DNA of 32,000 bases from Thermofilum pendens Hrk 5. GTDB taxonomy: Archaea; Thermoproteota; Thermoprotei; Thermofilales; Thermofilaceae. The notes below the pieces were generated by a model. It was given only the letters and a program-made list of their open reading frames with translations, was not told the DNA's origin and made no database searches. The position numbers were made by a program, and so were the translations under genes. The first letter of the stretch is position 1. The number at the start of each line of letters is the position of its first letter. Shown here piece by piece: positions 28,490 through 32,000 of this stretch. Location of the stretch: contig NC_008698.1 in NCBI RefSeq assembly GCF_000015225.1, positions 900,001 through 932,000 on the forward strand. The letters are read 5' to 3'.

Positions 28490-31400
28490 ATGCCGGAGGA
28501 AAAGCCTACTCTACTAGAGTCGCCGAGCTTCCCGATAGAAAGTATTAACAAGGCTTCGAAGTCTGAGAAGACGGGTGGAGGGAGGCCCCCTTACTGGGAG
28601 ATGGTTTTCTGGTGGACCAGGAAGCCTCTTGCCGGGGCAAGAGCAATAATAGCGGCTTCGCTACTATCACAGGACGACTACCCAGAAAGCTACAACTTCC
28701 TAAAAGACCTCTTCCCCTGTATGGACAAGAGGACTCCTCATTCTTGCAACCCTAACCAAAGACTCGTAGAGAAACTCAAGGGAAAGAAGCTCCTAGACCC
28801 CTTCGCCGGCTTTGGCTCAATACCCCTAGAGGCTGCAAGGCTAGGCCTCGACGTAACCGCGGTCGAGCTACTGCCGACAGCTTACGTGTTCCTCAAGGCT
28901 GTATTGGAATATCCAAAGGAGTACGGCAAAAGGCTTATCGAGATAAGCGGGAAAGAGGTCGAGAGCCTCGGCTTAAGAGACGCTGTCAGGCGGTTCAACG
29001 GCTCGGCAAAGATAATAGAGACGGGCAGGTACAAGGTGCCGCTACTAATATACGACGTGGCCAGGTGGGGCAGGTGGGTAACCGAGGAGCTTAAAAAAGA
29101 CCCAGACTTCAAAGAACTCTACGACGAAGACGTCGCAGTATACATAGGTACATGGGAAATTAAATGCCCCGTCTGCGGGCGCTACACCCCACTTGTAGGC
29201 AACTGGTGGCTTGCCAGAGTAAAGTCGAAACGCGGCTACGAGAGGCTAGCCTGGATGCAATGGAGAGACGGAGAAATAGAGGTTGTAGACCTCAACGAAG
29301 CATGCAAGAAGACCGGAAGAAGCTCATGCAACGAGCTTCTCGCCAAGGTACAAGGCAAAGATGAAGAGTCCGGTGCTAGGGTAGAATGGAACGGCCAGGT
29401 ATACGTTGTCCCCTCAAAGAATATCAACGCTAAGTTGGAAGAAGCTCAATGCCTTTACTGTAGGGCAAAAATCGACCACCGCGTAAAAGAAAACAGAATA
29501 TTGAAACCTGTGAAAAATAAGAAAAAAGAAGGAGAATGGTACGTAAAATGGGCTCTTCAACGCTGGAACAGCCTCCTAGAAGATTATCTCTTTGGGAAGG
29601 TAAGCTTGGAGGAACTGAGAAACGCGCCCGCCAGGCCCAGGATACTGGTCAAAGTCAGGGTCACAGACGGGGACCTCGAGTTCGAGCCTGCAACACGAGA
29701 GGACACAGAGAAGTTATGGAAAGCCCTCGAAAAACTGAAGCAAAAGTGGAAAGAACCGGATGTACCATCAGAAGAGTTATGGAAGTATACTGCAAGTGGC
29801 GGAGGCGCGCTGAGCATATGGACATGGGGCTTTGACAAATTCTACAAACTTTTCAATCCTAGGCAGTTGCTGACATTGGTTAAGCTCGTCAGGCTAGTGA
29901 GGGAGGCCGGGAAGAGCGTCGAGGAGGAAAAGCTGAAGGAGGGCTGGAGCAAGGAAGACTCCTTTAGGTACGCCGAAGCGATAACAACATACCTGGCAAT
30001 AGCATTATGTAAACAAATAAATTATGACAGTATTGTAACATCTACAGAGCCTGTACAGAAATTCATCCGAGAAACATTAGCGTTTAGAGGCATTGCTATG
30101 ACATGGAACTGGGTAGAGGAGTTACCTGTAGCAGACGTTCTGGGTTCATATATAAGGTCGTTAAATTCCAGTGTTGGTAGCTTATCTTATCTTGTTTCTG
30201 CTGTGTATGGTAGCCCTAGCAGGGTTAAGGTTTTGCTCGACGACGCTACAACTCTGGACATGCTTGTGGGCGAGAAGTTCGACCTGATAGTCACGGATCC
30301 GCCTTACGCCGACGACGTGCCGTATACGGAGCTGAGCGACTTTTACTACGTGTGGCTCAAGAGAGCTTTAAGCGATGTCTCGGGCGGGAAGCTTATTCCC
30401 AGATTTCTGCCGGAAGCCTTCTTTGACGAGTTCGGAGAGGAGATAAAGACTCAGTGGGAGACCTTTGCTACGAGAGAGGTCAGCGAGAATACTGAGCGTT
30501 GGAAATACTTTAAGCTGAACATTTCCTTCAGTGAACTTCTGGCTAGGGCTTTTGCTAACGTTACAAGGTTCCTTGATGAAAAGGGTCTGCTGGTAACGTA
30601 CTATGTTGCTAAGAAGCCGGAGGCTTGGGTAGCCTTGATAGATGCGCTCTGGCATATCAATGGTATGAGGGTTGTAGTTGCTTACCCCGTGGTTACGGAG
30701 GCTGAAGAAAATGTGGTAGCAAGGGGAAGGGCGGCAGTGATGGGAGGCTATGTTATGGGATGGCGGAGGAGGGAGGTGGAGAAGCCCTTGGATCTCTCGA
30801 GTGAGAAAGAGGCTGTTGTGACTACCGTCTCAGAGCGTCTAGGTAATTACTTAAAGGCCATAGATGTGAAGGAAGGTGCTACGGCGTGGGTTTATGCTTA
30901 TCTTGCGGCTCTTAGCTATTTAACTTCTTTCTACCCCGTAAAGGATGGGGGCGTGGAGCTAGATGCTGAGGGTGTTGTTAGCCATGCGATGGCGTTGTCC
31001 TTTGAAGCTATGTTGAGGAAAGCTGGTGTAAACCTGCATGACCCGGCGGCGCTGGCATACCTTGCGCTGAGAGTTGTGGAGGATGAGAAGGGTAGGGTTG
31101 ACAGCGACGTGCTTTCTCGGGTGGCGTTAGGGCTTGGGATTAGAGACGTGGAGCTCGTTAAACTGGGGCTTGTCAGGGAGGTTCGGAGCGGAGGGCCTAA
31201 GGTGGCTAAGCGTAAGGTGTTCGAGGTTATGGCGCCCAGGAACGAGACGGTCGACGAGGTTAGGCGCGTGTTGTACCCGTTGCGGGGGAAAGCTCCTGTG
31301 CTGGAGTGTTTTAGGAATCTTCAGCTCTCGGTGCTAGCGAGAACCCAGGTATCCTGTGATCAGCGGGCTAGGGAGGAGGCGAAGGAGCTTGCAAAAGCTA

Positions 31401-31495
31401 TTGTAAGGCTTAGCGGGATGGGTCTTATTGACGAGGAGGATCCAGATGTTAGGCTTTCTAGGGCTGTGTTGGGTTTTGAGTGGTGGGAGCAATGA
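28490..31495 (+). CDS. DUF1156-type DNA methyltransferase with Zn-ribbon (COG1743-like)
   Basis: 1001 aa from the ATG at 28490. The N-terminal 'FPIESINKASKSEKTGGGRPPYWEMVFWWTRKPLAGARAII' is DUF1156-like. The SAM motif I is 'LDPFAGFGSIPLEAARLG'. The Zn-ribbon is 'CPVCGRYTP ... CLYCRAKIDH'. Catalytic motif IV is 'IVTDPPYADDVPY' (DPPY at 30296-30307). Confidence 0.85.
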   Translation: MPEEKPTLLESPSFPIESINKASKSEKTGGGRPPYWEMVFWWTRKPLAGARAIIAASLLSQDDYPESYNFLKDLFPCMDKRTPHSCNPNQRLVEKLKGKKLLDPFAGFGSIPLEAARLGLDVTAVELLPTAYVFLKAVLEYPKEYGKRLIEISGKEVESLGLRDAVRRFNGSAKIIETGRYKVPLLIYDVARWGRWVTEELKKDPDFKELYDEDVAVYIGTWEIKCPVCGRYTPLVGNWWLARVKSKRGYERLAWMQWRDGEIEVVDLNEACKKTGRSSCNELLAKVQGKDEESGARVEWNGQVYVVPSKNINAKLEEAQCLYCRAKIDHRVKENRILKPVKNKKKEGEWYVKWALQRWNSLLEDYLFGKVSLEELRNAPARPRILVKVRVTDGDLEFEPATREDTEKLWKALEKLKQKWKEPDVPSEELWKYTASGGGALSIWTWGFDKFYKLFNPRQLLTLVKLVRLVREAGKSVEEEKLKEGWSKEDSFRYAEAITTYLAIALCKQINYDSIVTSTEPVQKFIRETLAFRGIAMTWNWVEELPVADVLGSYIRSLNSSVGSLSYLVSAVYGSPSRVKVLLDDATTLDMLVGEKFDLIVTDPPYADDVPYTELSDFYYVWLKRALSDVSGGKLIPRFLPEAFFDEFGEEIKTQWETFATREVSENTERWKYFKLNISFSELLARAFANVTRFLDEKGLLVTYYVAKKPEAWVALIDALWHINGMRVVVAYPVVTEAEENVVARGRAAVMGGYVMGWRRREVEKPLDLSSEKEAVVTTVSERLGNYLKAIDVKEGATAWVYAYLAALSYLTSFYPVKDGGVELDAEGVVSHAMALSFEAMLRKAGVNLHDPAALAYLALRVVEDEKGRVDSDVLSRVALGLGIRDVELVKLGLVREVRSGGPKVAKRKVFEVMAPRNETVDEVRRVLYPLRGKAPVLECFRNLQLSVLARTQVSCDQRAREEAKELAKAIVRLSGMGLIDEEDPDVRLSRAVLGFEWWEQ

Positions 31496-32000
31496 GTCTC
31501 GTGAATTTGCTTGCTGAGGGTAAGGTTAGCCCCGCGGTAGACATCTACGAGGTGTATAAGAGCCTCTTCAAGGGGGAAAAGCCTGAGAAGATCTACGAGC
31601 CTTACTGTGACCCCCGCTTGTTCTTCCAGCTGACGTTTGTGACGGACGGGTTTAAGCAGTACCTCGGCGATTTTCTCTCGAAGCTCGCGTCCGGAGAGTC
31701 TGAAGTGTACGTTATGCCGGCTCTTCTGGGGGCGGGTAAATCGCATTTCTTGGCTTTCGTACTGCATATACTCAGACTTTACAGGGATTGCAGGGGCGCT
31801 GGGGAGTGTGTCGAGAAAGCTTTGGAGGAGCTGGGAGTGAAGCTTAAAGTTCCCTCTCTCGAGAAGGTTCCCGAGGTTTTAGTGTTCCACGGGGAGCACA
31901 ACGTTGACCTTAAGCCGTTGGACTTTTCAAGCAAGGATACTCTTAAAGCCTCCTTGAAGCCCCCCGTGGTCTTGATATTCGACGAGACACAGCACTTCGA
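31492..32000 (+). CDS. DUF499-type P-loop ATPase (COG1483-like), 5' part only; it continues beyond the window
   Basis: It is not in the ORF track because it has no stop in the window. The ATG at 31492 overlaps the methyltransferase stop (ATGA). My hand translation is 'MSLVNLLAEGKVSPAVDIYEVYKSLFKGEKPEKIYEPYCDPRLFFQLTFVTDGFKQYL...VMPALLGAGKSHFLAFVLHIL...VVLIFDETQHF'. This includes Walker A GAGKSH and a Walker B-like IFDE. Confidence 0.7.
   Translation, partial: MSLVNLLAEGKVSPAVDIYEVYKSLFKGEKPEKIYEPYCDPRLFFQLTFVTDGFKQYLGDFLSKLASGESEVYVMPALLGAGKSHFLAFVLHILRLYRDCRGAGECVEKALEELGVKLKVPSLEKVPEVLVFHGEHNVDLKPLDFSSKDTLKASLKPPVVLIFDETQHF

Follow-up and report, generated by a model that had tools for sequence, protein, structure and literature searches.

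Which system do the two genes at the right-hand edge of this stretch of the Thermofilum pendens Hrk 5 genome belong to, and how much of it is there? We analyzed 32,000 nucleotides (nt) of the forward strand of this archaeon (assembly GCF_000015225.1, contig NC_008698.1, positions 900,001 to 932,000), which we call the window and number from its first letter. A first-pass annotation, made from the letters alone, had noticed a methyltransferase gene and the start of an ATPase gene at 28490 to 32000, and had read them as part of a methylation-linked defense system. Our results make it fairly probable that the window holds the 5' half of a complete four-gene operon of the Hma, or type-1 BREX-related (BR), kind (BREX, bacteriophage exclusion), which would work in a restriction-modification (RM)-like manner. 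The evidence that we observed directly is the gene content, the intact catalytic motifs, the tight coupling of the genes, the conserved gene order, and the family assignments.

A four-gene operon crosses the edge of the window

By exact-sequence look-up, the methyltransferase gene was located on two contigs, one of 1.8 Mb at NCBI (GCA_054696865.1) and one from Logan. In the extended 23-kb contig L001, positions 1-13511 are identical to 18490-32000 of the window. The methyltransferase gene lies at L001 10001-13006 and the ATPase gene at 13003-16062, followed by a small gene (16056-16454) and a helicase gene (16454-18895). The remaining genes had been expected just past 32000, and that is where the rest of the ATPase gene, the small gene, and the helicase gene were found. 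The parts of the operon are as follows (aa, amino acids; SAM, S-adenosylmethionine).

Window 28490..31495, + strand: DUF1156 N6-adenine-type (amino) DNA methyltransferase, HmaB-like, 1001 aa; ATG at 28490, TGA at 31493-31495.
Window 28529..28672, + strand: DUF1156 N-terminal helical segment, aa 14-61 (Pfam PF06634); aligns with bacterial DUF1156 methyltransferases.
Window 28796..28816, + strand: SAM-binding motif I, DPFAGFG, aa 103, located by regular expression; kept in 10/10 aligned methyltransferases.
Window 29165..29461, + strand: four-Cys zinc ribbon in the target-recognition insert, C226-x2-C229 (nt 29165-29176) and C321-x2-C324 (nt 29450-29461).
Window 30296..30307, + strand: catalytic motif IV, DPPY, aa 603 (TDPPY), located by motif search.
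Window 31492..32000, + strand: DUF499 (HmaC-like, ORC/Cdc6-type AAA+) ATPase, first 169 aa, cut by the window end; full gene L001:13003-16062, 1019 aa.
Window 31729-31746, + strand: ATPase Walker A, GAGKSH.
Window 31966-31992, + strand: ATPase Walker B, VVLIFDETQ (IFDET at 31975-31989), at the very end of the window.
L001:16056-16454: small gene, 132 aa, between the ATPase and helicase genes, with GGAGGAGG just upstream of its ATG.
L001:16454-18895: Snf2 helicase with a C-terminal PD-(D/E)XK nuclease, 813 aa, assigned by Pfam and PADLOC.

In operon order, the junctions overlap by 4, 7, and 1 nt. The methyltransferase stop and ATPase start share the ATGA that had been noticed earlier (31492-31495), and the TGA of the small gene overlaps the helicase ATG (TGATG). 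Because every junction overlaps, all four genes are coupled stop to start. A T-rich sequence lies 3' of the helicase stop codon.

The order methyltransferase-ATPase-(small gene)-helicase is kept in 9 distinct Thermoproteota loci. Compared with the other 8, the T. pendens methyltransferase shows 57 to 62% identity to its orthologues, and helicases are 52 to 66% identical to the T. pendens protein. Identity of the ATPase is lower, at 40 to 51%, and this faster divergence would be compatible with arms-race pressure on that component. In Pyrobaculum oguniense TE7, the methyltransferase gene (L003:6028-9004) is frameshifted near L003:8648, which splits it into ORFs (open reading frames) of 894 and 111 aa; the ATPase, small, and helicase genes beside it are intact. 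The frameshift is either a sequencing error or a sign that the methyltransferase was lost while the effector was kept.

Two flanking genes were considered as further parts and rejected. Neither the 215-aa ORF immediately upstream (27709-28356, + strand), which matches no family, nor the M48 metallopeptidase gene just downstream (L001:19031-19918) has been kept beside the operon in the other 8 loci. Another M48 peptidase gene lies near the Thermus type-1 locus that we used for comparison (L006:19159-20052), after an HNH gene.

The three large proteins resemble the Hma trio

The first-pass annotation had called the mechanism unknown and had put no name to the system, which is out of date. The trio of HmaA helicase, HmaB methylase, and HmaC ATPase was named in 2021 by Payne et al. 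in their PADLOC work, from 1,638 operons in 26 phyla, its function then being untested (PMC8565338). Rakesh and Krishnan (NAR, 2026) renamed these loci BREX-related (BR) systems centered on DUF499, found them in ~3,600 prokaryotic taxa (including ~400 archaea), and proposed an RM-like model in which they sense, modify, and restrict (PMC12839542). They distinguish three types. The type 1 helicase starts with a TUDOR domain and ends with a PD-(D/E)XK nuclease. In type 2, DUF3780 is encoded by a gene of its own, and the helicase has no TUDOR but an HKD nuclease at its N terminus; type 3 has PglZ and iSTAND genes and no nuclease (PMC12839542). In 2024, a Halomonas HmaA with the same Snf2-NOV_C architecture as the T. 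pendens helicase was shown to protect Escherichia coli from phage T4; its nuclease domain is a Mn/Mg-dependent nickase that is needed for this defense (PMC11232893). The fragment at the window edge is therefore part of a system that already has a name.

The 1001-aa methyltransferase contained every feature claimed for it from the raw sequence: the DUF1156 segment, motif I, the paired CxxC, and DPPY. Pfam DUF1156 matched aa 14-61 (E value, 2.8e-10; 40.6 bits against a cut-off of 24). The PADLOC matches were MTase_II (2e-199), HmaB (1.9e-51), and DUF1156_MTase (3e-20), together with a faint PglX match. Judged by such E values, ~3-kb ORFs of this kind are far beyond chance, and the MTase_II match reflects methyltransferase homology only. 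An alignment was made of the protein, four of its archaeal orthologues, and five DUF1156 methyltransferases from bacteria (n = 10). Motif IV was DPP[YF] throughout (10/10), as TDPPY in 8/10, SDPPY in one archaeal locus, and TDPPF in Klebsiella. The ribbon halves are CPVC at aa 226 (nt 29165) and CLYC at aa 321 (nt 29450). Their four cysteines are kept in the archaeal, bacterial type-1, and Klebsiella proteins and were lost only in the Deinococcus type-2 protein. A single four-Cys finger in the target-recognition insert has been described for DUF1156 methyltransferases (PMC12839542). Because the cysteines are conserved in all but the Deinococcus protein, the CxxC pair corresponds to this published finger.

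The ATPase was harder to place. Its N terminus reads ...YEPYCDPRLFFQLTFVTDGFKQYL...LLGAGKSH..., and the 169-aa fragment in the window had no Pfam match and only weak PADLOC matches (HmaC, 9e-6; DUF499, 3e-4). The earlier assignment to DUF499 was borne out by the full-length protein, which passed the Pfam model narrowly (25 bits against a cut-off of 23). The model was also matched by 9 of the 16 clade members (best E value, 2.4e-15). This clade is small, with 55 clusters, and all matches that carry a source name are from Thermoproteota. The HmaC and DUF499 hidden Markov models (HMMs) cover only short stretches of the T. pendens protein, and no relative of solved structure was found by sequence. 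An AlphaFold2 model (predicted local distance difference test score [pLDDT], 85.4) has a P-loop domain at its N terminus, then segments that are helical or resemble winged helices; its segments at aa 798-904 are all beta, and aa 912-995 form a b-a-b-b-a-b unit at the C terminus. With this model, Foldseek returned ORC1, ORC4, and Cdc6 at E values of ~1e-5 (including 5UJM and the Sulfolobus Cdc6/Orc1 2QBY), and also Ig-like and MG-domain arrays; one clade member matches the Pfam Rib domain. The published architecture of DUF499 ATPases is an ORC/Cdc6-like AAA+ domain, a winged helix, and a C-terminal RRM-like domain (PMC12839542). The model suggests that the T. pendens protein is a DUF499 AAA+ ATPase with an RRM-like C terminus, the sequence part of this assignment being marginal. 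On the Pfam and PADLOC assignments, the methyltransferase and ATPase make up a defense-type pair, as had been proposed.

The helicase matched SNF2-rel_dom (7e-18), Helicase_C (1e-16), and ResIII in Pfam, with NOV_C/PD-(D/E)XK at aa 687-780 (E value, 8.8e-5; 22.9 bits against a cut-off of 22.1). Its PADLOC matches were DrmD (9e-49), HmaA (1.6e-45), and BrxHI/II (4e-41). The helicase motifs GLGKT, DEAH, and QRIGRIWRFGQ were invariant across four orthologues, as was the nuclease triad PFD717...VE730VK732. It had been noted that no restriction endonuclease gene is visible. This is correct for the window but misleading for the system, because an intact PD-(D/E)XK domain, ~4.5 kb beyond the edge of the window, forms part of the helicase.

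The T. pendens helicase is ~300 aa shorter than its bacterial type-1 counterparts. Its motif I is at aa 38-45, and the protein opens directly with the Snf2 core. About 100 N-terminal residues, the TUDOR region, are missing: position 17-18 of the archaeal profile corresponds to residue 103-106 of three bacterial type-1 helicases, and HmaA HMM position 106 aligns to residue 16 of the T. pendens protein. An N-terminal HKD/PLD endonuclease is also absent; the phospholipD_antiphage model matched the core only (125 bits against a cut-off of 1100).

A divergent archaeal variant closest to type 1

We scored archaeal profiles of the methyltransferase, helicase, and ATPase against bacterial plasmid loci of type 1 (Thermus, Fervidibacter, and Gordonia) and type 2 (Deinococcus). 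The methyltransferase profile scored 253, 161, and 160 bits with the type-1 references and 70 with the type-2 reference, and the helicase profile scored 161, 138, and 131 bits compared with 73. Both proteins thus appear, by their profile scores, clearly closest to type 1. The C-terminal PD-(D/E)XK domain of the helicase agrees with this. The ATPase profile scored 26.7 (Fervidibacter, the top match), 17.0, and 9.3 bits with type 1 and 18 with type 2; these values look too low to separate the types, and only the top match is type 1.

The locus shares with the Hma/type-1 BR systems a DUF1156 N6-methyltransferase in which motif I is followed by a zinc-finger insert in the target-recognition domain and by DPPY, a Swi2/Snf2 helicase with a C-terminal NOV_C/PD-(D/E)XK domain, and the presence of the three core genes in one locus. 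It also shares a DUF499 ORC/Cdc6-like AAA+ ATPase with a C-terminal RRM-like domain, for T. pendens on marginal sequence matches and a model. However, the T. pendens helicase is shorter and lacks TUDOR, and the ATPase has diverged strongly, with beta-sandwich domains preceding the RRM in its model. Gene order differs as well. The archaeal order is methyltransferase-ATPase-small gene-helicase, with the 132-aa gene in 6/9 loci, whereas the three bacterial loci that we inspected have the helicase upstream or divergent and no gene of the 132-aa type.

Some features recall type 2: a stand-alone small gene in the core operon, a TUDOR-less helicase, and beta-sandwiches before the ATPase RRM. Tandem FnIII-like beta-sandwiches precede the RRM in ~53% of type-2 systems, and it is mainly for type 2 that this elaboration has been reported (PMC12839542). 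However, the T. pendens small protein is not DUF3780, and the nuclease of the helicase is a C-terminal PD-(D/E)XK, not an N-terminal HKD/PLD. NCBIfam equivalog scores are far under cut-off (values below), and the type-2 reference scored lowest for the methyltransferase and helicase, although not for the ATPase.

Other methylation-linked systems are less similar. The three core proteins are homologous to BrxXI, BrxC, and BrxHII of type-3 BREX, which also has PglZ (PMC12839542), and self-DNA methylation is presumed in both. However, the T. pendens nuclease is fused to the helicase and the methyltransferase has a DUF1156 N terminus. No PglZ, BrxA, BrxB (iSTAND), or BrxL was found among the called genes of the 23-kb L001, and no PglZ or iSTAND (BrxB-like) families among those of loci L003-L005, both by precomputed Pfam matches. 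DrmD of DISARM, likewise methylation linked, gave the best single HMM match of the helicase core (9e-49 or 1.6e-51), but its score was 176 bits against an equivalog cut-off of 610, DrmA, DrmB, and DrmC genes are absent, and the partners are DUF499 and DUF1156. Nor is this a classical type I, II, or III RM set. The methyltransferase is not paired with HsdS/HsdR, Res, or a stand-alone endonuclease; its partners are a DUF499 ATPase and a Snf2-nuclease. On these sequence comparisons the T. pendens locus is of a known kind, Hma/type-1 BR, as a divergent archaeal variant with an extra small subunit.

The Klebsiella michiganensis plasmid pK518_KPC (L010 1014-13577) carries a locus with the order DUF499...DUF1156-small ORF-SNF2, interrupted by genes for SIR2-family and ATP-binding proteins. 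This interruption is compatible with the published idea that hma loci are hotspots for the insertion of defense genes.

A rare small protein is coupled to the ATPase and helicase genes

The first-pass annotation had expected an SF2 helicase and a small DUF3780-like protein as companions. A Snf2 helicase and a small gene are indeed present, but the small protein is not DUF3780: it has no Pfam match, and HHalign against a 24-sequence DUF3780 alignment gave a probability of 0.3%. Assemblies differ in the call of this gene, which is 108 aa in one and 132 aa in another. The longer start (L001:16056) is real and the 108-aa call wrong, because the ATG overlaps the ATPase stop (ATGCTGA) and follows GGAGGAGG and because the N-terminal 24 aa are conserved in Pyrobaculum, where the protein is 56% identical over 131 aa (E value, 1e-51).

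The gene is present in six of the nine Thermoproteota loci (Thermofilum, P. oguniense, two Pyrobaculum metagenome-assembled genomes [MAGs], a Vulcanisaeta MAG, and a Joint Genome Institute [JGI] contig) and overlaps both neighbors in all six. It is absent from the other three (Vulcanisaeta thermophila, Caldivirga, and another JGI contig). Members of the family are very rare: 5 clusters came from a word-index search and 18 relatives from a full HMMER scan of 1.84 billion representative proteins. Pfam had no match to the protein or to 10 of its relatives, and no relatives were found in IMG/VR viral contigs. The AlphaFold2 model was confident (pLDDT, 90.8; predicted template modeling score, 0.87) and showed an alpha+beta fold of five strands and five helices. 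Foldseek searches of PDB and BFVD with this model returned nothing below an E value of 0.3.

Position and coupling argue for the small protein being a subunit of the complex. We considered whether it is a split-off helicase TUDOR domain. This was rejected because HHalign against the N termini of bacterial type-1 helicases gave a probability of 0.07% and because helicases are just as short in loci that lack the small gene. A profile-profile test also rejected kinship with the 166-aa small ORF in the same position of the Klebsiella plasmid locus.

More distant family members were seen in three contexts. P0065 follows a DUF499 gene, and P0064 lies among small unannotated ORFs. P0066, a distant relative (E value, 1e-20), is on ENA metagenome contigs (L011:6344-6775 and L012:8001-8432) outside a defense operon, with an integrase, a Dam-like methyltransferase, two PHROG-matching ORFs, and many small unannotated ORFs. 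These neighbors mark the P0066 element, by their sequences, as virus-like or integrated. Tentatively, and with only a modest chance of being right, we suggest that the small protein defines an undescribed Thermoproteota subtype of BR/Hma system with a TUDOR-less helicase. It would have been recruited from a family shared with archaeal virus-like elements, as a DNA or mark reader or as an ATPase-helicase adaptor, and would be analogous but unrelated to DUF3780 and TUDOR. The viral relatives might instead act as decoys for the system or inhibit it. The small subunit offers a handle on how such systems acquire or exchange reader modules.

How the operon might work

In the RM-like reading that we favor, the DUF1156 methyltransferase would read a DNA motif through its zinc-ribbon insert and methylate adenine N6 (DPPY) on host DNA, and this methylation would serve as the self mark. 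The DUF499 ORC/Cdc6-like ATPase, with its winged-helix, beta-sandwich, and RRM-like modules, would be a scaffold that scans DNA or senses the invader and licenses the effector. The Snf2 helicase would translocate on unmarked DNA and nick or cut it with the fused C-terminal PD-(D/E)XK domain; the nickase activity, and the requirement of the nuclease for defense, are carried over from the bacterial homologue only. The 132-aa protein may be a lineage-specific accessory subunit, an adaptor or a reader of DNA or its mark, translationally coupled between the ATPase and helicase.

Several points weigh against this reading. The TUDOR region, listed among the features of type-1 helicases, is missing from that of T. 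pendens. The DUF499 assignment of the ATPase by sequence is marginal (25 bits), and NCBIfam equivalog scores are far under cut-off (ATPase model, 20 against 1200 bits; methyltransferase model, 100 against 1000). The anti-virus and methylation roles of the T. pendens operon, as of all archaeal members, are read from sequence. If the P. oguniense frameshift is real, the system can do without its methyltransferase, or else this copy is in decay. Finally, Halomonas HmaA alone protected against T4 (~100-fold), a phenotype that failed at a high multiplicity of infection and was described as abortive infection, and T4 passaged on an HmaB-expressing host kept the same sensitivity (PMC11232893). Because HmaA alone defends and HmaB passage is without effect, a simple RM logic is unproven even in bacteria.

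These Halomonas results would be explained if the Snf2-PD-(D/E)XK protein were the defense by itself (abortive infection or a stand-alone effector), nicking DNA when infection is sensed, with the methyltransferase and ATPase as regulators or epigenetic accessories. About 15 to 20% of hmaA loci lack hmaB or hmaC (PMC11232893), which is also in favor of this idea. The intact ATPase, small, and helicase genes beside the broken methyltransferase gene of P. oguniense point the same way. However, T4 DNA is heavily modified, which makes it a poor test of adenine-methyl protection. Also, the methyltransferase, ATPase, and helicase genes are adjacent, mostly overlapping, and in conserved order in 9/9 Thermoproteota loci, and such overlaps of stop with start codons point to a complex whose parts are co-expressed stoichiometrically. 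We regard a stand-alone effector or abortive infection as unlikely here, if still worth serious consideration. It is more doubtful that the operon works by BREX-like exclusion, in which methylation would again be the self mark and an ATPase-helicase complex would keep unmarked DNA from replicating but leave it undegraded, with the nuclease as an auxiliary. The homology to BrxXI, BrxC, and BrxHII, the BrxHI/II match of the helicase, and the faint PglX match of the methyltransferase all speak for exclusion. However, the PD-(D/E)XK triad is invariant across the clade, the nuclease was required in the bacterial homologue (PMC11232893), and the 23-kb locus has none of the PglZ, BrxL, BrxA, and BrxB genes.

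A role outside defense is very unlikely. Snf2 and ORC-like ATPases also have housekeeping functions, and one orthologous locus is frameshifted, so the operon could be a module for chromatin remodeling, repair, or epigenetic regulation, or a decaying, functionless remnant. However, all its catalytic motifs are intact. Its G+C content is lower than that of the adjoining housekeeping block, and toxin-antitoxin modules and other defense-type genes surround it. Its distribution is also patchy. A scan of species-representative genomes (one per species) found only five loci, none of them from T. pendens. The operon therefore appears to be strain variable, which supports the reading as part of a defense island.

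The operon belongs to a system already named, modeled, and partly tested, and its interest now lies in the divergent Thermoproteota variant with the orphan small subunit. In the literature that we surveyed, experimental work on DUF499-centered BR systems is limited to one bacterial helicase-nuclease. The cooperation of a methyltransferase, an ORC-like ATPase, and a Snf2-nuclease could be studied, by structure and biochemistry, in this compact, intact four-gene version from a hyperthermophile. A preprint of September 2026 (bioRxiv 10.64898/2026.09.23.753747) on MANTIS, a BREX-related system, reportedly describes dual ATPase-activated DNA hemimethylation and cleavage. It is said to mention DUF499 and helicases and to cite the 2026 comparative study, and may cover the mechanism of this family; we take it as a lead only.

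Defense-type genes upstream of the operon

The window changes character along its length. Positions 1-6.1 kb are housekeeping DNA of 63 to 66% G+C, with genes for a thymidylate-synthase-like protein, a class-V aminotransferase, the alpha and beta subunits of phenylalanyl-tRNA synthetase (PheRS), and a HAD hydrolase. From ~6.4 kb onward, the genes are accessory and the G+C content varies from 39 to 63%. They include PaREP1 and FeoAB genes and the following.

Window 8835-10724, + strand: SF1 helicase, 629 aa (AAA_11/AAA_12); PADLOC match to the helicase part of MkoA (Mokosh), 7e-81; much shorter than MkoA (no search for other Mokosh components was made).
Window 11567-13123, + strand: AAA_14 and DUF4143 ATPase; PADLOC candidate family PDC-S01, 7e-20.
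Window 14119-16284, + strand: 721-aa protein with a weak NERD nuclease domain and an SLFN-g3/DUF2075 helicase domain (3e-74); PADLOC Nhi, 6e-11, and AbiO, 8.5e-10.
Window 16944-19310, + strand: 788-aa ORF with no Pfam or PADLOC match, in the lowest-G+C stretch of the window (39 to 44%).

The 721-aa protein is probably an Nhi-like nuclease-helicase defense gene product. The first-pass annotation had also pointed to neighboring nucleotidyltransferase (NTase) and toxin genes. Pfam confirmed a PIN (vapC-like) gene and a DUF6036/AbiEii-like NTase gene before the operon, each with a small upstream ORF that has no meaningful family match. With the vapC-like, NTase, MkoA-like, Nhi-like (NERD-DUF2075), and PDC-S01-like genes all in the window, the proposed defense-island setting was upheld. 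Rfam and tRNA scans of the window were empty. The low G+C content around the 788-aa ORF suggests foreign DNA. A 291-aa ORF (13469-14344) with a sub-threshold DUF6308 match overlaps the 721-aa gene.

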